From: a virus
Lineage: Duplodnaviria; Heunggongvirae; Uroviricota; Caudoviricetes
DNA: 31,573 nucleotides
IMG/VR virus record: IMGVR_UViG_2551306526_000005
Direction: 5' to 3' (one strand)
Shown: one piece after another, positions 2,825 through 18,096 of the stretch
Layout: the number at the start of each line of letters is the position of its first letter
Position numbering within the stretch: the stretch's first letter is position 1
Made by a program: the position numbers and the translations under genes
Notes under the pieces: generated by a model
Databases searched by the model: none
The model's input: only the letters and a program-made list of their open reading frames with translations
Told to the model about the DNA's origin: nothing

Positions 2825-3076
2825 TTGGAGATGACAAATACAAAATGGTTCAGGAAACGCTTAACAGATTATCAACTTTCATTACTTAAAAAATTAGATG
2901 ACAAGACTCCACTACATCCTTCAAGCGATGTCTTCCGCTCCTGTCCTAGTCGTGTGGAAAAAGCATTTATAGCAATGGGGAAATGGGGGCTTGTGACCAA
3001 ATCAAGAGAAGGTTTCTGTATTACCGATAATGGCCGGGAAATGATTGATTCTGCGGAGAGGGCATATAGCGAATGA
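2825..3076 (+). CDS. Hypothetical early-operon protein (83 aa)
   Basis: ORF with GGAG RBS (gggaagttggag ATG); tightly packed in operon. Confidence 0.4.
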   Translation: MEMTNTKWFRKRLTDYQLSLLKKLDDKTPLHPSSDVFRSCPSRVEKAFIAMGKWGLVTKSREGFCITDNGREMIDSAERAYSE

Positions 3077-3363
3077 AAAATATATTGCTTAATAACTGGC
3101 TGAAGATTTCAGTCATGAAAAATGGTGATTTGTCGCTAGCTGATATTAAACGCGATAAAAACACTGGGGATATGGTGGAATCAACTATAGCCATTTATGC
3201 GGATAAATTAAATCTCCTGTCTGATGTGGTCAATTTACTTGTTAAACGCGCTGTATTTCATAAGCAAATTTCATCCGTGGATGAACTGACAAAATTAACG
3301 ACAGAAATCGCCAGCTATTGCGCTGATGAATTTAAGAAACTGAACGACAAAAGGAGCTGGTAA
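3073..3363 (+). CDS. Hypothetical early-operon protein (96 aa)
   Basis: Start overlaps previous stop (ATGA coupling); operon context. Confidence 0.4.
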   Translation: MKNILLNNWLKISVMKNGDLSLADIKRDKNTGDMVESTIAIYADKLNLLSDVVNLLVKRAVFHKQISSVDELTKLTTEIASYCADEFKKLNDKRSW

Positions 3364-3587
3364 TGCCGGACAACGTAGATTTTATTCAGGAACAACAGGC
3401 TGAATTACTGGAGCGCCAGATTAACGCGGCAAGGGTAAAACATTGCGGTGTTTCTGCGTTTGTTTGCGAAGAGTGTGATGCGCTAATACCTGCTGCCCGT
3501 CGTGCGGCTTATCCGTCAGCCACGCGTTGTGTTTCCTGTCAGTCAGTCTTTGAAGCAAAAAACAAACATTACCGGAGAATGGCATGA
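3363..3587 (+). CDS. TraR/DksA-family C4 zinc-finger protein
   Basis: 74 aa with CxxC...CxxC (CEECDALIPAARRAAYPSATRCVSCQ), typical of phage TraR/DksA-like proteins; translationally coupled. Confidence 0.65.
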   Translation: MPDNVDFIQEQQAELLERQINAARVKHCGVSAFVCEECDALIPAARRAAYPSATRCVSCQSVFEAKNKHYRRMA

Positions 3588-3859: not shown

Positions 3860-6134
3860 AGCCTCCGGGCGTTTTGTCCCTCCGTCAGCATTTGCCGCAG
3901 GCACCGGTAAGGCGTTTACCGGTGCTTATGCATGGAACGCGCCACGCGAGGCTGTAGGGCGCGAAAGACCTCTTACACGTGACGAGATGCGTCAGGTGCA
4001 AGGTGTTTTATCCACGATTAATCGCCTGCCTTATTTTTTGCGCTCGCTGTTTACTTCACGCTATGACTACATCCGGCGCAATAAAAGCCCGGTGCACGGA
4101 TTTTATTTTCTCACATCCACTTTTCAGCGTCGTTTATGGCCGCGCATTGAGCGTGTGAATCAGCGCCATGAAATGAACACCGACGCGTCGTTGCTGTTTC
4201 TGGCAGAGCGTGACCACTATGCGCGCCTGCCTGGAATGAATGACAAGGAGCTGAAAAAGTTTGCCGCCCGTATTTCATCGCAGCTTTTCATGATGTATGA
4301 GGAACTCAGCGATGCCTGGGTGGATGCGCATGGCGAAAAAGAATCGCTGTTTACGGATGAGGCGCAGGCTCACCTCTATGGTCATGTTGCTGGCGCTGCA
4401 CGTGCTTTCAATATTTCCCCTCTCTACTGGAAAAAATACCGTAAAGGGCAGATGACCACGAGGCAGGCATATTCTGCCATTGCCCGTCTGTTTAACGATG
4501 AGTGGTGGACTCATCAGCTTAAAGGCCAGCGTATGCGCTGGCATGAAGCGTTACTGATAGCTGTCGGGGAGGTCAATAAAGACCGTTCTCCTTATGCCAG
4601 TAAACACGCCATTCGTGATGTGCGTGCGCGCCGCCAGGCAAATCTGGAATTTCTTAAATCGTGTGACCTTGAAAACAGGGAAACCGGCGAGCGCATCGAC
4701 CTTATCAGTAAGGTGATGGGCAGTATTTCTAATCCTGAAATTCGCCGGATGGAGCTGATGAACACCATTGCCGGTATTGAGCGTTACGCCGCCGCAGAGG
4801 GTGATGTGGGGATGTTTATCACGCTGACCGCGCCGTCAAAGTATCACCCGACTCGTCAGGTCAGAAAAGGCGAAAGTAAAACCGTTCAGCTTAATCACGG
4901 CTGGAACGATGAGGCATTTAATCCAAAGGATGCGCAGCGTTATCTCTGCCGCATCTGGAGCCTGATGCGCACGGCATTCAAGGATAATGATTTACAGGTC
5001 TACGGTTTGCGTGTCGTCGAGCCACACCACGACGGAACGCCGCACTGGCATATGATGCTTTTTTGTAATCCACGCCAGCGTAACCAGATTATCGAAATCA
5101 TGCGTCGCTACGCGCTCAAAGAGGATGGAGACGAAAGAGGAGCTGCGCGAAACCGTTTTCAGGCAAAGCACCTTAACCGGGGCGGTGCTGCGGGATATAT
5201 CGCGAAATACATTTCAAAAAATATCGACGGCTATGCACTGGATGGTCAGCTCGATAACGATACCGGTAAGCCGCTTAAAGATACTGCCGCGGCTGTTACC
5301 GCATGGGCGTCAACGTGGCGCATCCCGCAATTTAAAACGGTTGGCCTGCCGACAATGGGGGCTTACCGTGAACTACGCAAATTGCCGCGCGGCGTCAGCA
5401 TTGCTGATGAGTTTGACGAGCGCGTCGAGGCTGCACGCGCCGCCGCAGACAGTGGTGATTTTGCGTTGTATATCAGCGCGCAGGGTGGGGCAAATGTCCC
5501 GCGCGATTGTCAGACTGTCAGGGTCGCCCGTAGCCCGTCGGATGACGTTAACGAGTACGAGGAAGAGGTCGAGAGAGTGGTCGGCATTTACGCGCCGCAT
5601 CTCGGCGCGCGTCATATTCATATCACCAGAACGACGGACTGGCGCATTGTTCCGAAAGTGCCGGTCGTTGAGCCTTTGACTTTAAAAAGCGGCATCGCCG
5701 CGCCTCGGAGTCCTGTCAATAACTGTGGAAAGCTCACCGGTGGTGATGCTTCGTTACTGGCTCCCACACCTTCTGAGCACGCCGCAGCAGTGCTTAATCT
5801 GGTTGATAACGGTGTTATTGAATGGAATGAACCGGAGGTCGTGAGGGCGCTCAGGGGCGCATTAAAACACGACCTGAAAACACCAAACCGTCAGCAAAGA
5901 AACGGAAGCCCGTTAAAACCGCATGAAATAGCGCCATCGGCCAGACTGACCCGGTCGGAACGAATGCAAATTACCCGTATCCGCGTTGACCTTGCTCAGA
6001 ACGGTATCAGGCCGCAGCGATGGGAGCTTGAGGCGCTGGCGCGTGGGGCAACCGTAAATTATGGCGGGAAAAAATTCACGTATCCGGTCGCTGATGAGTG
6101 GCCGGGATTCTCAACAGTAATGGAGTGGACATGA
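3849..6134 (+). CDS. A: Rolling-circle replication initiator endonuclease (P2 gpA-like)
   Basis: 761 aa from ATG 3849 (MAVKASGRF...), the length I recall for P2 A; HUH-type motif (PHWHMMLF) and tyrosine-containing motif (AAGYIAKYISKNIDGY). Confidence 0.9.
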   Translation: MAVKASGRFVPPSAFAAGTGKAFTGAYAWNAPREAVGRERPLTRDEMRQVQGVLSTINRLPYFLRSLFTSRYDYIRRNKSPVHGFYFLTSTFQRRLWPRIERVNQRHEMNTDASLLFLAERDHYARLPGMNDKELKKFAARISSQLFMMYEELSDAWVDAHGEKESLFTDEAQAHLYGHVAGAARAFNISPLYWKKYRKGQMTTRQAYSAIARLFNDEWWTHQLKGQRMRWHEALLIAVGEVNKDRSPYASKHAIRDVRARRQANLEFLKSCDLENRETGERIDLISKVMGSISNPEIRRMELMNTIAGIERYAAAEGDVGMFITLTAPSKYHPTRQVRKGESKTVQLNHGWNDEAFNPKDAQRYLCRIWSLMRTAFKDNDLQVYGLRVVEPHHDGTPHWHMMLFCNPRQRNQIIEIMRRYALKEDGDERGAARNRFQAKHLNRGGAAGYIAKYISKNIDGYALDGQLDNDTGKPLKDTAAAVTAWASTWRIPQFKTVGLPTMGAYRELRKLPRGVSIADEFDERVEAARAAADSGDFALYISAQGGANVPRDCQTVRVARSPSDDVNEYEEEVERVVGIYAPHLGARHIHITRTTDWRIVPKVPVVEPLTLKSGIAAPRSPVNNCGKLTGGDASLLAPTPSEHAAAVLNLVDNGVIEWNEPEVVRALRGALKHDLKTPNRQQRNGSPLKPHEIAPSARLTRSERMQITRIRVDLAQNGIRPQRWELEALARGATVNYGGKKFTYPVADEWPGFSTVMEWT

Positions 6135-6586
6135 TGGCAAAAATTCACGAGGTAAAGCTGCACGCAAAATATTTCGACCTTGTGCTGGAAGGAAAGAAAC
6201 GCGCAGAGTTTCGGAAAAATGACCGTAATTATGAGCGTGGGGACACGTTGATTTTGCATGAATGGGGGCAGGGTGCGTATACGGGGCGAAAGGTTGAAGC
6301 CCGGATAACAGATGTTACTGACCTGTCAGACTGGCTGGAAGATTATGTCTTGCTAAGTATTGAGCGGCTTAATACAGGCGCATGTGAGATTGTGAACTGG
6401 AAAGAACTTAGTGAGCGTGGTCTGGTATTCAGAATTAATCATGAAATTATGCATCAGCTTGGCCTTGCTGTTATGTATGAACCAGATACGGGGATGTCTG
6501 GTGGGGCAATGGTTGCCACGGATGGAGCATGGAACTATTCAGATGAACAGATGGAGCGTGCACAGCAAAACGGGTGGCTTGGATAA
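6131..6586 (+). CDS. ASCH/DUF3850-like domain protein with uncharacterised C-terminal extension
   Basis: Start overlaps A stop (ATGATGG); N-terminal KIHEVKLHAKYFDLVLEGKKRAEFRKNDRNYERGDTL resembles DUF3850/ASCH fold proteins; C-terminal roughly 70 aa unassigned. Confidence 0.5.
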   Translation: MMAKIHEVKLHAKYFDLVLEGKKRAEFRKNDRNYERGDTLILHEWGQGAYTGRKVEARITDVTDLSDWLEDYVLLSIERLNTGACEIVNWKELSERGLVFRINHEIMHQLGLAVMYEPDTGMSGGAMVATDGAWNYSDEQMERAQQNGWLG

Positions 6587-7015
6587 TGCACAGAATACCA
6601 GGCGAGATACCGCACCATAAAACTAAAAATATCAAGCTGATGGCTATTGTTCAGCGTTTACAGCGGATTATGGTCAACGAAAATCTGACGCCCGATGAGC
6701 TGGTCGGGTGTGCCGAAATAGTCCGGGATAATTACGGGCGGCTTAACTATATCGGTCAGTCCAGAGTTGCGCCACCACCACGCAGACGATAGAGAACGCC
6801 GCCAGTCGTGAAACTTGTTTTCAGGGCTGGCGGGGTTGAACAACGAGCGAAGCGAGGCGTTAGTTGACAGACATATTTTTACTGCGTTGGTGCCGGTTTT
6901 TAACGGTTGAAAGGAGTTAGGTTGGAGAGCTAACAACTTACAAATATTCAAAAGTAAGCATCCTGTTGCTAACATGAGGTCGATTTTTTATGTGGATGAT
7001 GCAAAAAGGATAGCT

Positions 7016-7747
7016 ATGGATACTATAATCGCTTTTCTATCACTCGCTTTTTTCGTTGCTTTCTTCATCGGGTTAATCAAGCCATCACTGGTGCGAATGC
7101 CAAACCGCAAACGTGCAAGTGCGGTTTATCTCGGAGGAGGTTTTGTATTGAGCATAATTGGTTCAATACTCTATCCAACAGAAAAAAGCCAGCCAGTTGC
7201 TAAAACTGAAACATCAACCGTTGCAGAACATAAAGTCCAAAAAACATTCGAATATGGTGAAAAAACACTCAAGGAATATCGGAACGAGTCAAAGAAAACA
7301 CGACACGATATTGTGAATAGTTACATTGATTTTAAGGAAGTTCCAGCCACCGCGTCAGATGCGTTTTATGCCTGCATGAGTGAGTATACATTTACCAAAG
7401 ATGATGAGTTGAAACTCGGTGATGTTCTTGGGTGGTGCTTTAATGATTATGAAAATGACCCGAATTCACTAAACAATAAAATCAATCTTGATACATTTCA
7501 GAGTAATTTTAGTGGTTGGGATGGTTCTTATCGTCCATTGGAAAAACTAATTAAAGATAATATGAACGATGATTCATCTTATAAACATGTGTCAACGGTA
7601 TATCATCTGGTTTTGAATAAAGACCCGCATGCCATTGTGAAAACCACGTTTCGCGGAACTAATGCTTATGGAGGAGTGGTGAAACAGACGATTGCTGCGC
7701 GTGTTGATATAAAAACTGGTAAGGTGATATCAATCATAGATAATTAA
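7016..7747 (+). CDS. Uncharacterised membrane-anchored protein, two N-terminal TM helices plus about 190-aa soluble domain (cargo)
   Basis: Start at ATG 7016 with AAGGA RBS; hydrophobic segments IIAFLSLAFFVAFFIGLI and VYLGGGFVLSIIGSILY; AT-rich codon usage unlike flanking phage core genes. Confidence 0.6.
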   Translation: MDTIIAFLSLAFFVAFFIGLIKPSLVRMPNRKRASAVYLGGGFVLSIIGSILYPTEKSQPVAKTETSTVAEHKVQKTFEYGEKTLKEYRNESKKTRHDIVNSYIDFKEVPATASDAFYACMSEYTFTKDDELKLGDVLGWCFNDYENDPNSLNNKINLDTFQSNFSGWDGSYRPLEKLIKDNMNDDSSYKHVSTVYHLVLNKDPHAIVKTTFRGTNAYGGVVKQTIAARVDIKTGKVISIIDN

Positions 7748-7756
7748 TATCTTACA

Positions 7757-7797
7757 ATGCCGACGCTGAATATTTAATTGGGTGTCGGCATTTTTTT
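7757..7797 (+). terminator. Rho-independent terminator after the 243-aa cargo gene
   Basis: ATGCCGAC...GTCGGCAT 8-bp stem followed by a T7 run, 10 nt after the stop codon. Confidence 0.5.
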
Positions 7798-7857
7798 GAC
7801 TATTAGAGCGGCAGAACCGAGATTTGTTACGTATGAGATTAGCACTGCGAGAATGTT

Positions 7858-8640
7858 ATGAAAGTTATAAACCAACTTAAGAAGTTTGATAAGAAAAGAA
7901 CGCCAGATGATGGCCGTATTAGTTTGTTATATGAAAACGCGATTAAGTATGATATGTACTCTGTATATATTAAAGATAAAAATGATACAGAATACCTCTT
8001 TGACTGTTTGGTTGATGGGAAGATAAAGGCTTTTAAATGGGATGATGAGGAGCGTAGATTTCATATAAGTTCATACTTGGATATTTCTGAGCTTACGCCT
8101 GATTCTTTTTTTGGTGTTTATTACTACCGTGCGCATGAGTTGCGATTTAACTCTTTAAATGATTTAACCTTTTTAAGGGAGTTGTTCTTTAGAGTAAAAT
8201 CTAATTATGAAAATATAAAGTTTAGTCGTGAAAAATATATTTATCGACAGCAAAAAAAAGAAATAACTGATGTGATGTTTGTTCTCTCAGCGATTATAAG
8301 AATGTATCGTGAACGGGATGCTGAAACTGTGTTTAGTGAGTTTTCAATAATGACCGAAGTCGCTGGTAGTTTATGGGTATACCATGACGATAAAAACAGG
8401 ATGCGTAAAGAGCTTCGTTTATGCCTGAATTCTCTTGTTCAGAATGGAGATCTTGTTGAAACAAGTAGTGGATTCAGGCTAACAGGAAAGGCACTGAACA
8501 CAATATCTACATTCAATAAAGATGAGGTGCGGTACAGAGAGAATTTGAGTACTCAGAAGAAAATGTTTTGGGCTACTTTTTTCGCAGCAGTCGGCGGCGT
8601 AGGAAGTATGATTGCAGCTATAATAGGGCTTCTAAAATGA
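7858..8640 (+). CDS. Uncharacterised tail-anchored protein, about 235-aa soluble domain plus C-terminal TM helix (cargo)
   Basis: 260-aa ORF; C-terminal hydrophobic helix FWATFFAAVGGVGSMIAAIIGLL; AT-rich; separated from the upstream cargo gene by a terminator. Confidence 0.6.
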   Translation: MKVINQLKKFDKKRTPDDGRISLLYENAIKYDMYSVYIKDKNDTEYLFDCLVDGKIKAFKWDDEERRFHISSYLDISELTPDSFFGVYYYRAHELRFNSLNDLTFLRELFFRVKSNYENIKFSREKYIYRQQKKEITDVMFVLSAIIRMYRERDAETVFSEFSIMTEVAGSLWVYHDDKNRMRKELRLCLNSLVQNGDLVETSSGFRLTGKALNTISTFNKDEVRYRENLSTQKKMFWATFFAAVGGVGSMIAAIIGLLK

Positions 8641-10023: not shown

Positions 10024-11795
10024 CAGTAAAACTCCAGAATGGTGGATGTCAGCGGGGTGCTGATACCGGCGGTGAGTGGCTCATTTAACAGGGCGTGCAT
10101 GGTCGCCCAGGCGAGGTCGGCGTGGCTGGCTTCCTCGCTGCGGCTGGCCTCATAGGTGGCGCTGCGTCCGCTGCTGGTCATGGTCTTGCGGATAGCCATA
10201 AACGAGCTGGTGATGTCGGTGGCGCTGACGTCGTATTCCAGACAGCCACGGCGGATAACGTCTTTTGCCTTGAGCACCATTGCGGTTTTCATTTCCGGCG
10301 TGTAGCGGATATCACGCGCGGCGGGATAGAACGAGCGCACGAGCTGGAACACGCCGACACCGAGGCCGGTGGCATCAATACCGATGTATTCGACGTTGTA
10401 TTTTTCGGTGAGTTTGCGGATGGATTCCGCCTGGGTGGCAAAGTCCATGCCTTTCCACTGGTGACGCTCAAGTATTCTGAATTTGCCACCGGCCACCACC
10501 GGCGGTGCCAGTACCACGCATCCGGCGCTGTCGCCACGGTGTGACGGGTCGTAACCAATCCATACCGGACGTGAGCCGAACGGATTGGCGGCAAACGGCG
10601 CATAGTCTTCCCATTCTTCCAGCGTGTCGACCATGCAGCGTTGCAGCTCCTCGAACGGGAACACCGATGCCTTGTCGTCAACAAATTCACACATGAACAG
10701 GTTTTTAAAATCGTCGGCGCTGTTTTCGCGTTTGAGCTGCTCAATGTCGAACAGCGTGCAGCCGCCTTTCAGCGCGTCCTCAATGGTGACAATCTGTCGC
10801 CACTGGCCGTCCGCACAGAGAAGCCCATCGGCAAGGGCGTTATGACTGATGTCGATTTCCACGCGTTCGGCGGCGCTGGCGCGTCCCTGGTTGAACAGTT
10901 CACCGGACCAGAACGGGTAGGCGTCGTGCGCCAGCGTGGACGGGGTGGAGAAATAGGTCGAGCGCAGGTGACTCTGTGAGGCCATACCTGATGCCACCTT
11001 ACGCAGTACCTGAAAATTCGGGATCCAGAAAATCTCGTCGACGTACAGGTCGCCGTTATGGCTCTGTGCGGTGTTGGAGTTGGTGCCGAGAAAAATCAGT
11101 TTTGCGCCGTTATTGCCCAGGACAATCGGGTCACCGGTCAGGTCAACGTCAACCAGCCGGGCAAAGGCGATGATGTATTCGCGGAACACATACGCCTGCG
11201 TTTTACTGGCCGACAGAAAAATCTGGTTATGACCGGTTTTCAGGGCGCGCAGCAGCGCCTCGCGGGAAAAATAAAACGTCGCGCCAATCTGGCGGGATTT
11301 CAGGATATCGCGGATGCGGTGCTCAAGCCCGGCGCGATACCAGTGCAACTGATATTCGAAAGACTGCTCAAAGAAAATCTGCTCCAGCTTTTCGATAGCC
11401 TCGTCGCTGAAAAAATTCTTTTTCGGTTTGCGCCGCCCGCCTTTGTTGCGGTTAGCGATGTTCGGATTAAGGTCTGCCTCGTTGCCGGTCTGGTTGTAGC
11501 GGTTTACCCGTGCCAGTCGTTCAATCTGGCGTCCGAGCAGGTCAATTTCCTTGAAGTCACCGCCGGTTTTCTGCGGTTTTATGATGAGCTGGGTCAGCCG
11601 CGCTTCCAGACTCATTTCGACACGGCTGATGGGAGCAACGCTGTCCCAGCCGTCGCGCTGTTTCCAGCTCTGCACCGTCGGGCGTTTCATCTGCAACATG
11701 GCGGCAATCTGCGGCACGGAAAACCCCTGCCAGTACAGCAGCGCCGCCTGACGACGCGGGTCGTGTAAAAGAGTGGTGTCTGTGGTGATGGTCAT
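10023..11795 (-). CDS. P: Terminase large subunit, ATPase (P2 gpP-like)
   Basis: 590 aa if started at MTITTDTT (track ORF opens 10 codons earlier); stop overlaps Q start. Confidence 0.9.
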   Translation of the reverse strand: MTITTDTTLLHDPRRQAALLYWQGFSVPQIAAMLQMKRPTVQSWKQRDGWDSVAPISRVEMSLEARLTQLIIKPQKTGGDFKEIDLLGRQIERLARVNRYNQTGNEADLNPNIANRNKGGRRKPKKNFFSDEAIEKLEQIFFEQSFEYQLHWYRAGLEHRIRDILKSRQIGATFYFSREALLRALKTGHNQIFLSASKTQAYVFREYIIAFARLVDVDLTGDPIVLGNNGAKLIFLGTNSNTAQSHNGDLYVDEIFWIPNFQVLRKVASGMASQSHLRSTYFSTPSTLAHDAYPFWSGELFNQGRASAAERVEIDISHNALADGLLCADGQWRQIVTIEDALKGGCTLFDIEQLKRENSADDFKNLFMCEFVDDKASVFPFEELQRCMVDTLEEWEDYAPFAANPFGSRPVWIGYDPSHRGDSAGCVVLAPPVVAGGKFRILERHQWKGMDFATQAESIRKLTEKYNVEYIGIDATGLGVGVFQLVRSFYPAARDIRYTPEMKTAMVLKAKDVIRRGCLEYDVSATDITSSFMAIRKTMTSSGRSATYEASRSEEASHADLAWATMHALLNEPLTAGISTPLTSTILEFY

Positions 11796-16281: not shown

Positions 16282-16711
16282 TGCCGTCACGGTGCTGAAA
16301 ACTAACCCCGATATGCTGCGGATATTCGTGGATAACGGGAGTATTGCCTCCACACTGGCGACGTCGCTGTCATTCGAAAAGCGTTACACGCTCAATGTGA
16401 TTGTGACCGACTTTACCGGTGATTTTGACCTGCTCATCGTGCCGGTGCTGGCGTGGCTGCGGGAAAATCAGCCCGACATCATGACCACCGACGCAGGCCA
16501 GAAAAAGGGATTCACGTTTTATGCAGACATCAACAATGACAGCAGCTTTGATATCAGCATCAGCCTGATGCTGACCGAGCGCACGCTGGTCAGTGAGGTG
16601 GACGGCGCACTGCATGTGAAGAATATCCCGGAACCCCCGCCGCCGGAGCCGGTCACCCGCCCGGTGGAGCTTTATATCAATGGCGAACTGGTGAGCAAGT
16701 GGGATGAATGA
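16244..16711 (+). CDS. R: Tail completion protein (P2 gpR-like)
   Basis: 155 aa, matching recalled P2 R length; synteny. Confidence 0.85.
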   Translation: MLKPDSLRRALTDAVTVLKTNPDMLRIFVDNGSIASTLATSLSFEKRYTLNVIVTDFTGDFDLLIVPVLAWLRENQPDIMTTDAGQKKGFTFYADINNDSSFDISISLMLTERTLVSEVDGALHVKNIPEPPPPEPVTRPVELYINGELVSKWDE

Positions 16712-17156
16712 GTTTAAGCGTTTTGAAGACCGGCTGACCGGACTGATTGAATCGCTGTCACCGTCAGGGCGTCGGCGACTGAGCGCCGAACTGGCAAAAC
16801 GTCTGCGACAGAGTCAGCAGCGTCGGGTGATGGCTCAGAAAGCCCCGGACGGCACACCCTACGTGCCACGCCAGCAGCAGAGCGCCAGAAAAAAGACTGG
16901 TCGTGTTAAGCGAAAAATGTTTGCGAAACTTATCACCAGTCGTTTTTTGCATATCCGCGCCAGCCCGGAACAGGCATCAATGGAGTTTTACGGCGGGAAG
17001 TCACCGAAAATCGCCAGCGTGCATCAGTTCGGTCTGTCGGAAGAAACCCGGAAAGACGGTAAGAAAATTGATTATCCGGCGCGTCCTCTGCTCGGCTTTA
17101 CCGGTGAGGATGTGCAGATGATTGAAGAGATTATCCTGGCTCACCTTGAGCGTTAG
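16704..17156 (+). CDS. S: Tail completion protein (P2 gpS-like)
   Basis: 150 aa, matching recalled P2 S length; start overlaps R stop. Confidence 0.85.
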   Translation: MNEFKRFEDRLTGLIESLSPSGRRRLSAELAKRLRQSQQRRVMAQKAPDGTPYVPRQQQSARKKTGRVKRKMFAKLITSRFLHIRASPEQASMEFYGGKSPKIASVHQFGLSEETRKDGKKIDYPARPLLGFTGEDVQMIEEIILAHLER

Positions 17157-17187
17157 TTTTATCCAGGCAGAGGCTGATGCGCAATTA

Positions 17188-17220
17188 AACATTGAGCGGC
17201 CATGCTGGTCGCTCAATGTT
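17188..17220. terminator. Bidirectional stem-loop between convergent S and the cargo gene
   Basis: Perfect 11-bp inverted repeat AACATTGAGCG...CGCTCAATGTT with about 11-nt loop between two convergent stop codons. Confidence 0.5.
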
Positions 17221-17227
17221 TAGAGGT

Positions 17228-18013
17228 TTATGAGTGATTTTTATTTGATGCTTTGTATTCTACAACCTTCTTATTGGCGTAAAGGAATTTTGTATATGAC
17301 AGGAATATAACCAGACCTGAAGTGAAATAGACGAGGGATAGTATTAATAATGCTTTTTTGTGACTGTTATTATCTTTAATCTCCTGGCTTAACCATTCGG
17401 AGTCCTCCTCGTTTAGCTGTAAGAGCTTATTGCAGGCGATTTCAGGAAGTGTGTCTTTTATAAATACGTTTTGCAGTCTCTTGCAATCGGCAAGGCTATA
17501 AGTTTTATTAAATTCAACTGCTTTATTTTTGAAGGATAAAAGAACTTTGTCACTATAAACATAGTACATCATATTTTTATATGGTATGCCTATGGCATCT
17601 CTTACTATAGCGGATTGTTTGTTGTGTATATAACATGCGAAGAGAATATAAATAATACTGGCCAGAATTACAATTATTGTTTTAATTATGTGTGGTGGTT
17701 TTGTTATGTCACCCCAGAAGCGAGTAAGGAAAAAATACGATGTTTTTAGTTTTCCATCAATCAGCCCCTGCTGTATCATTCTCACATCTTCGATGCCTGA
17801 TACATTGATTCCGTTAATTATTTTAAATAGTTGAATGTCGCGCCATTTTTTGTCGAGCATTTTTAACTTTCTGTCTGAATACTCAAGATTGAAATGATGT
17901 GCAATAAACCTCATAAGATTACTTTTACCAAAGGTAACAAATGTTAATGCTATTAATAAAAATAGATACAAAGAGATAAACCACCACGCATTAGTCACAT
18001 TATCACTGAACAT
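17228..18013 (-). CDS. Uncharacterised polytopic membrane protein, three predicted TM helices (cargo)
   Basis: 261-aa ORF on the strand opposite the late operon; very AT-rich; hydrophobic segments WWFISLYLFLLIALTFVTF, IIKTIIVILASIIYILFACYI, ALLILSLVYFTSGLVIFL. Confidence 0.6.
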   Translation of the reverse strand: MFSDNVTNAWWFISLYLFLLIALTFVTFGKSNLMRFIAHHFNLEYSDRKLKMLDKKWRDIQLFKIINGINVSGIEDVRMIQQGLIDGKLKTSYFFLTRFWGDITKPPHIIKTIIVILASIIYILFACYIHNKQSAIVRDAIGIPYKNMMYYVYSDKVLLSFKNKAVEFNKTYSLADCKRLQNVFIKDTLPEIACNKLLQLNEEDSEWLSQEIKDNNSHKKALLILSLVYFTSGLVIFLSYTKFLYANKKVVEYKASNKNHS

Positions 18014-18096
18014 TACACTCTCCTCGAATGTTGTATGGTCGTTCTACAAATGAATCCAGATAGCATAACTTTTATATATTGTGCAATCTCACACGC

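Follow-up and report, generated by a model that had tools for sequence, protein, structure and literature searches.

Orf30 of a P2-like Escherichia coli prophage, a predicted three-helix membrane protein encoded at the variable S-V junction and a candidate for phage resistance

The window, that is, the whole stretch of 31,573 nucleotides analysed here, carries an AT-rich gene on the minus strand between the tail genes S and V. We identify it, close to certainty, as orf30, the gene of an accessory cassette in a P2-like prophage. The gene itself is already known. What is newly established is its protein family, how faithfully this family keeps to S-V, and the richness of that junction in defence genes. 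As to function, we tentatively place Orf30 among the anti-phage factors of the bacterial envelope.

The interval between S and V (17157-18096) is a 100% match to E. coli APEC O78 (NC_020163.1). The carrier of the cassette in this strain is a P2-like prophage integrated between pflA and pflB. This prophage is defective. Lysis and baseplate genes are lost, and the 3' end of gpV is changed in the window by a deletion of 506 bp relative to P2 (blastn against P2). The orf30 gene is still intact. The cassette measures 940 bp and spans the entire gap from the S stop to the V start. It holds one long ORF (17228-18013, minus strand, 261 amino acids, ATG start). An earlier note on this DNA had described a minus-strand frame of 261 codons with three transmembrane (TM) helices, lying between S and V and much more AT-rich than its neighbours. 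The frame is present as described, and the base composition agrees: the GC content is 0.344 in the cassette, against 0.539 in S and 0.598 in V. The features of the region are the following.

16704-17156, plus strand: gpS (tail completion), left anchor and last gene of the late O operon; from the ORF list and the P2 and RefSeq annotations
17157-18096, no strand: the orf30 cassette, the whole interval from S stop to V start, which replaces the 66-bp empty site as a unit; from alignments with KC618326 and P2
17186-17222, no strand: inverted repeat with 17-nt arms and a 3-nt loop, between the convergent S and orf30 stops; probable bidirectional terminator
17228-18013, minus strand: orf30 coding sequence, 261 amino acids; orthologue of P2 Orf30 (AAD03281) and member of phrog_2407
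18020-18025, minus strand: Shine-Dalgarno sequence GAGGAG, 6 nt before the orf30 ATG; read from the sequence
18028-18055, plus strand: Ogr (late-activator) site in the promoter of the V operon; placed by way of the P2 annotation (record 10239-10266; the V ATG at 10308 is 18097 in the window)
18097-18726, plus strand: gpV (baseplate spike), right anchor; from the P2 and RefSeq annotations

The cassette is open over 271 codons at its longest, whereas the longest open stretch in 2000 shuffled versions averaged 70 codons and never exceeded 155. At the composition of the cassette, 261 open codons are expected by chance with a probability of about 2e-9. Together with the dN/dS values given below, these statistics exclude the reading that orf30 is not a gene.

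The stretch from S through orf30 to V shows 95.5% DNA identity to the P2 reference and up to 97.3% to other Peduovirus isolates. At the protein level, the window ORF is 87% identical to P2 Orf30 over 261 of 261 residues, and length, place and strand are all equal (tblastn). The identity to Peduovirus P24A7b is 95%, also by tblastn. The protein matches phrog_2407 end to end (1-261 of 261, E = 1e-144), a family whose function is given as unknown in PHROGs. In the P2 annotation, orf30 (AAD03281.1; AF063097, 9439-10224) is described as 'nonessential'. The earlier note had seen here a moron insertion site at the place where P2 has orf30. The acquired add-on at a variable site is borne out by the empty 66-bp gaps of related phages. 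Nevertheless, the ORF is not another gene at that place; because it is P2 orf30 itself, the gene was already known and there is no new insertion.

The genes old, tin and fun already account for the three classical interference phenotypes of P2, which counts against an anti-phage role of orf30. In the literature on acquired genes of P2-like phages, the orf30 locus appears as a third variable P2 locus beside the TO region (old/tin) and the Z region (Z/fun), and Orf30 is given as 'unknown' (PMC3091744; PMC6823313). The searchable literature yielded no function or phage phenotype for P2 orf30, and no function for the domain family DUF6216 considered below.

We surveyed the S-V site in close relatives, using 83 loci at which gpS shares 98-100% identity with that of the window; 82 of them had both S and V. 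The gap was empty, with 66 bp, in 48 of the 82. The orf30 cassette was present in 27 (26 of 940 bp and one of 918 bp), with the frame of 261 codons kept in every one. The remaining seven carried other AT-rich, antisense, single-gene cargo. These loci encode a protein of 357 aa that has two helices in its C-terminal part, one of 268 aa, or one with a RelA/SpoT domain that matches the PADLOC candidate PDC-S33. Alignment with an empty site (KC618326) shows that the whole intergenic region is replaced rather than interrupted. A scan of genome contigs with gpS gave three loci only. Among 5426 complete E. coli genomes, this type of S gene occurs in 1576, at 1803 places. The orf30 cassette occurs in 464 of the 5426 (about 9%), at 482 places, all chromosomal, and at least 80% of the 940-bp cassette is covered in 460 genomes. 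In P2-type phages of E. coli, the S-V site is mostly empty or filled with orf30, and not highly diverse. A moron is an autonomous add-on gene in a phage operon, a concept that comes from the lambdoid phages. The marks of a moron seen here are flanking genes that lie next to each other in relatives and a distinct base composition. That the cassette is an acquired add-on at a variable site is well supported.

A broader view came from three divergent gpS queries. They led to 141 further loci with 115 unique S-V gaps: 31 were empty (52-73 bp), nine held a gene of the Orf30 family, always antisense, and 75 held other cargo. The 84 occupied unique gaps gave 69 clusters of cargo proteins, of which 48 representatives were scanned. 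Matches among these 48 include PARIS AriA/AriB (AAA_15 and DUF4435), PtuA-like ATPases, ATPase-Toprim proteins, AbiLi, ThsA Macro, ThsB TIR and CAP12 TIR. They also include DUF4062, reverse transcriptase, DUF4917, and KAP and STAND NTPases. An ORF6N protein and an IS transposase were also among them; no virulence-factor domain was seen among the listed matches. With PARIS, Thoeris, TIR, reverse-transcriptase and similar cargo found there, the S-V junction of P2-like phages in general acts like a hotspot of anti-phage defence. In E. coli, the commonest cargo at this site is the Orf30 family.

The papers on P2 hotspots that we consulted describe other sites. Two of these are old/tin, which lies between A and Q, and Z/fun, which lies between G and FI; both carry exclusion or defence genes. 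The third is flanked by a tail gene and cI (PMC9122126, PMC9519451). The S-V junction is not described as a defence hotspot in these papers and was not mined there. The cargo of the known P2 hotspots extends beyond defence and includes toxins and partition systems (PMC9122126).

Relatives of Orf30 were collected by two kinds of search. A word-indexed search returned five clusters, or seven proteins with the family profile. An exhaustive HMMER profile search of 1.84 billion representatives was needed to reach 44 clusters, many of which are full-length proteins of 250-270 aa. In an alignment of 26 sequences, identity to the window protein drops to about 18-23%, and all 26 match phrog_2407. What the alignment keeps is the set of three hydrophobic segments, one motif in the first loop (loop 1) and two cysteines in the second (loop 2). 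This architecture and these motifs are kept down to about 19% identity and in six genera. Named members come from Escherichia, Enterobacter, Yersinia, Pectobacterium, Cronobacter and Sodalis, and are always annotated as 'hypothetical protein'. The best-conserved motif of the family is D-x-Q-L-F-[KR]-x-x-N-G-[IV]-N-V ... D-A, in loop 1. No conserved stretch of 7-10 columns was found in the whole family alignment. Invariant residues are few: only G68, G87, C194 and I212 in the 26 sequences, with G29, Q61, D76 and K254 nearly so.

Of 11 distant members, seven sit in P2-like prophages, antisense in the interval from gpS to gpV and adjoining V. These prophages belong to Escherichia, Yersinia, Pectobacterium and Sodalis, and the arrangement holds down to about 19% identity. 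The other four lie elsewhere: beside an integrase remnant, beside dsbA (on short contigs), at a contig end by chromosomal genes, and between yegQ and yegS. The last of these is chromosomal in Enterobacter cloacae, away from any phage. All family members have a GC content of 0.30-0.38, against 0.41-0.61 in their hosts. Since members occur both at S-V and elsewhere, and are AT-rich whatever the host, orf30 moves and persists on its own. This autonomous travel argues against Orf30 as a part of the virion. By sequence comparison, this is a fast-diverging family of Enterobacterales, mostly tied to P2-like phages.

A remote relationship may extend the family to DUF6216 (PF19723). One member, P0032, covers model positions 10-265 of 270 with 28.9 bits, the gathering cut-off being 27.3. 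Weak matches to this model were obtained for nine of the 26 family members, with P0032 alone above the threshold. The window protein itself had no match to DUF6216 in Pfam. The link would be remote and transitive, at the superfamily level at most.

The predicted anatomy of the protein is given below, with residue numbers and the corresponding window positions.

17924-17986, minus strand: TM1, residues about 10-30, the most variable part; from family hydropathy and charge
17684-17923, minus strand: loop 1, residues about 31-110, predicted cytoplasmic helical domain; from alignment, charge, AlphaFold2 and dN/dS
17621-17683, minus strand: TM2, residues about 111-131; from the family hydropathy peak and a modelled helix at 109-134
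17354-17620, minus strand: loop 2, residues about 132-220, predicted periplasmic domain; from cysteine columns, charge, the model and dN/dS
17291-17353, minus strand: TM3, residues about 221-241, followed by a Lys-rich, predicted cytoplasmic tail; from hydropathy, charge and a modelled helix at 202-260

The three TM helices claimed in the earlier note agree with these data. The hydropathy segments are conserved in the family of 26 sequences, and AlphaFold2 with this alignment models all three as long helices (pLDDT 84.4, pTM 0.74). In the model, loop 1 is a small helical domain (helices 48-67 and 74-86, pLDDT 84-95). Loop 2 is modelled as a four-stranded sheet with helices, the strands lying within 141-173. 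Membrane topology can be predicted with the positive-inside rule. In the 26 sequences, the N-terminal tail is essentially free of Lys and Arg, and the C-terminal tail is positive. The mean net charge in the family is +5 for loop 1 and about 0 for loop 2. With this rule, the charge pattern predicts the N-terminus outside, loop 1 inside, loop 2 outside and the C-terminus inside. We infer that Orf30 is a three-helix protein of the inner membrane, with one cytoplasmic and one periplasmic domain. In loop 2, C177 is present in 23 of 26 sequences and C194 in all 26; a periplasmic disulphide between them is plausible.

The homology and fold searches brought out no relationship to a protein of known function. 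The structure prediction and Foldseek comparison proposed in the earlier note supplied the helices just described, and no informative fold match. Foldseek against BFVD returned nothing at E ≤ 0.001, and a profile search of PDB sequences returned nothing meaningful. Foldseek matches to SURF1-like proteins, claudin, the calcium-channel gamma subunit and helical bundles are generic, and we do not read them as homology. With the window protein as query, Pfam and NCBIfam gave nothing significant, and the PADLOC-DB 2.0 defence models gave 0 families at E up to 1. PHROGs, also at E up to 1, gave families of unknown function only. Matches of the window protein to DUF6535 and to the tick protein RP671a are sub-threshold noise. 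An LPS-modifying enzyme was also considered. It is unlikely because there is no conserved set of residues of catalytic type, and Orf30 is probably non-enzymatic.

We estimated the selection pressure on orf30 with 22 distinct alleles of the 940-bp cassettes. The overall dN/dS is 0.44, compared with 0.03 for S and 0.22 for V. The pressure is not uniform along the gene. Lower values were obtained for loop 1 (0.29) and loop 2 (0.23), and a value of about 1.15 for the N-terminal tail and TM1 (residues 1-28). It means that the soluble domains of Orf30 are under purifying selection. The synonymous divergence of orf30 (dS = 0.13) is like that of the flanks (0.08-0.11). For this reason, the divergence of the protein reflects faster amino acid change, mainly in the anchor helix, and not an older coalescence.

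On the S side, the earlier note had reported a perfect hairpin of 11 bp. The hairpin is real, and larger than that. Its 17-nt arms (17186-17202 and 17206-17222) are 94% complementary, and the predicted dG is -26.8 kcal/mol for the plus-strand RNA and -21.3 for the minus-strand RNA. The fold was matched by 0 of 200 shuffles on either strand, with z about -6 (-6.7 on the minus strand). It starts 5 nt past the orf30 stop and is the counterpart of the 'putative rho-independent terminator for O operon' annotated in P2. Only a short U tract follows it in either direction, and a terminator scan did not call it. For this reason, the structure is given as no more than a probable bidirectional terminator.

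On the V side, the Ogr site lies inside the cassette, 15 bp from the orf30 start codon. Therefore, orf30 and V are divergent neighbours. The ACAAC core of this site is also kept upstream of divergent members of the Orf30 family. The earlier note had pointed to the region upstream of 18013 for promoter mapping on the minus strand; our promoter search of the sequence gave no sigma-70 consensus site there. Similarly, no promoter motif common to divergent cassettes was found. The one Rfam match in the cassette, of a hairpin to a microRNA family, is due to chance and lies far below threshold. In enterobacteria, H-NS typically silences DNA of high AT content, and the cassette is likely silenced in this way. 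This likely silencing and the missing sigma-70 consensus count against the anti-phage reading given below, in which orf30 would be expressed in lysogens.

The function that we favour is that of an envelope-level anti-phage factor, by superinfection exclusion or abortive infection. We hold it as a possibility that falls just short of probable. Orf30 would be made from the prophage, act alone and without enzymatic chemistry, and protect the host at the envelope. The leading sub-mechanism is superinfection exclusion, in which Orf30 would disturb the inner-membrane step of DNA entry by the incoming phage. As a second option, Orf30 might be a membrane-acting effector of abortive infection, triggered through the conserved cytoplasmic loop 1. 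The cassette is a self-contained, horizontally acquired unit of one antisense gene, bordered towards S by the hairpin that the two operons share as a probable terminator and towards V by the Ogr-dependent promoter of that gene. Protection of the host is the most likely role because related phages carry anti-phage genes at the same spot. The defence-rich company at S-V makes an exclusion or injection-block function more plausible, on the basis of association. Association at a hotspot is weak evidence, and P2 hotspots hold non-defence cargo too. In addition, the most conserved part of the protein is predicted to be cytoplasmic, which would suit a role as sensor or in partner binding no less than a periplasmic block. 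A wider proposal is somewhat more doubtful still: the relatives in phrog_2407 and those resembling DUF6216 may form an unrecognised class of single-gene, three-helix anti-phage proteins, and S-V may be an undescribed P2 defence hotspot.

Alternatively, orf30 could serve lysogenic conversion without phage defence. It would then act on the physiology of the envelope, for example in tolerance to stress or antimicrobials, in fitness during colonisation or virulence, or in immunity to colicins or tailocins. A predicted membrane protein with a periplasmic domain would suit such a role, and orf30 is intact in a prophage without its lysis and baseplate genes. The Enterobacter cloacae member, fixed in the chromosome between yegQ and yegS with no phage nearby, points in the same direction. 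Toxins such as CDT are known as cargo of P2 hotspots (PMC9122126, PMC6823313). However, neither sequence nor fold searches found similarity of Orf30 to known conversion or immunity proteins. The recognisable cargo at S-V consists mostly of defence domains, with no virulence-factor domain in the listed matches, and the family is mostly tied to P2-like phages. We consider conversion unlikely.

An accessory role in the lytic cycle of the phage is less likely again, and we regard it as improbable. Orf30 would adjust the timing of lysis, prevent the re-injection of progeny into the dying cell, or help the tail or spike. Its divergent pairing with the V promoter would then serve regulation. The arrangement of the gene speaks for this role. 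At S-V, orf30 always adjoins V and is divergent from the Ogr-dependent promoter, 15 bp from the activator site, and this holds for all seven distant members at S-V and for all 36 surveyed cassettes. Moreover, P2 has other nonessential membrane modulators of lysis, namely lysA, lysB and lysC. On the other hand, orf30 is nonessential according to the P2 annotation, about half to two thirds of near-identical phages do without it, and family members exist outside prophages. In addition, late transcription would run against the gene, which is antisense to each of the two late operons.

Finally, orf30 might be a functionless passenger, selfish or decaying foreign DNA tolerated at a permissive site; the gene is nonessential in P2, AT-rich and probably silenced by H-NS, without a promoter found upstream and with an N-terminal helix at a dN/dS of about 1, but this reading is very improbable, being contradicted by the purifying selection on the loops (0.23-0.29), and facing a frame intact in 27 of 27 cassettes, a cassette covered to at least 80% in 460 complete E. 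coli genomes, and an architecture with motifs conserved to about 19% identity across six genera.

The anti-phage reading would give a concrete meaning to a long-standing orphan of the P2 reference. Because a conserved membrane family is tied to one site, and this site also holds PARIS, Thoeris and other systems, orf30 becomes a single-gene candidate for a role in phage resistance. If the anti-phage inference is wrong, the insertion flagged in the earlier note is still resolved as a known gene.

The proposed mode of action has precedents. HK97 gp15, P22 SieA and T4 Imm are small inner-membrane exclusion proteins, encoded by accessory genes, that act alone. Orf30 would share all of this with them: a small inner-membrane protein from an accessory gene, acting alone. 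Nevertheless, no sequence or fold relation to these proteins was detected (PHROGs, BFVD, PDB), and orf30 has no known exclusion phenotype.

Compared with DUF6216, a group of uncharacterised proteobacterial membrane proteins, the Orf30 family has the same length class and is collinear from end to end. The window protein differs in giving no match to the model, and the function of DUF6216 is undefined too.

The closest counterpart is P2 Orf30. The order is the same (S, terminator hairpin, antisense orf30, Ogr site, V), as are the AT-richness and the length of 261 aa. The window gene differs as an allelic variant whose N-terminal helix is strongly divergent, and its carrier prophage is defective.

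As a locus, the orf30 site can be compared with old/tin and Z/fun of P2. It differs in its position, between S and V, and in being usually empty or occupied by orf30 in E. coli. In the other respects, it is the same kind of place: a small locus between conserved genes, with high turnover, AT-rich cargo and known defence systems as alternatives.

The antisense orf30 gene and its relatives at the S-V junction lie directly beside the promoter of the V operon. We compared the region upstream of orf30 (window 18014-18096) with the matching regions of five related loci (L005, L006, L012, L016, and L103). In these cassettes, the family gene and the Ogr-dependent V promoter always have a common upstream region. 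The cassettes are very divergent. Between the family gene and V, upstream conservation is confined to elements close to where V translation starts and to the late-activator site, of which the ACAAC core is kept.

The prophage carrying orf30 looks defective. Compared with P2, it is missing P2 6482-7492 at window about 15283, so that L has no 3' end and X, the holin gene Y, and the endolysin gene K are absent altogether. Also missing, at window about 18675, is P2 10888-11393. Here V is cut short at its 3' end, W is absent, and J is cut short at its 5' end. The genes at both junctions are annotated as pseudogenes in RefSeq. This decaying prophage still has an intact orf30. Separately, a tandem repeat lies at window 20532-21003, within the tail-fibre gene H (748 aa) of this prophage. 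The unit is 132 bp long, present in 3.6 copies with 85% matches, and is translated as repeated 44-residue units.

Members of the Orf30 family also occur outside the S-V junction. The features concerned are:

L246:5001-5765, Orf30-family gene P0030 (254 aa), Enterobacter cloacae chromosome, yegQ-yegS interval
L008:831-980, 49-aa ORF directly upstream of the family member P0016

The P0030 gene stands alone between yegQ (peptidase U32) and yegS, with no phage genes nearby at this Enterobacter cloacae locus. Its GC content is 0.36, against 0.55 in the flanks, and it was found repeatedly, on many contigs. At L008, visual inspection of the 49-aa ORF suggests that it is what remains of the C-terminus of a tyrosine integrase. 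With this integrase-like remnant directly upstream, the P0016 copy may border on a different mobile element.

The two classical hotspots of the window prophage are also occupied:

window 6134-8640, A-Q cargo, flanked by genes A (replication) and Q (portal)
window 23016-24710, G-FI cargo, flanked by genes G (tail-fibre assembly) and FI (sheath)

Taken together, their cargo is made up of hypothetical proteins, among them one DUF3850 and one DUF3606 protein. None of the five cargo proteins scanned from these hotspots (the DUF3606 protein was left out) matched a PADLOC model.

The P2 hotspot literature examined does not name the S-V junction as a defence hotspot. In divergent P2-like phages (loci L104-L244), the cargo at this junction is very diverse, with 69 clusters. 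Two example gaps from the related loci are:

L124, 3734-5702
L022, 1305 bp, beginning directly past gpS (3001-3450)

The cargo of the divergent phages includes a reverse transcriptase, DUF4917, KAP/STAND NTPases, AbiLi, and a RelA_SpoT protein. It also includes PARIS AriA/AriB, Thoeris ThsA/ThsB, and TIR proteins.
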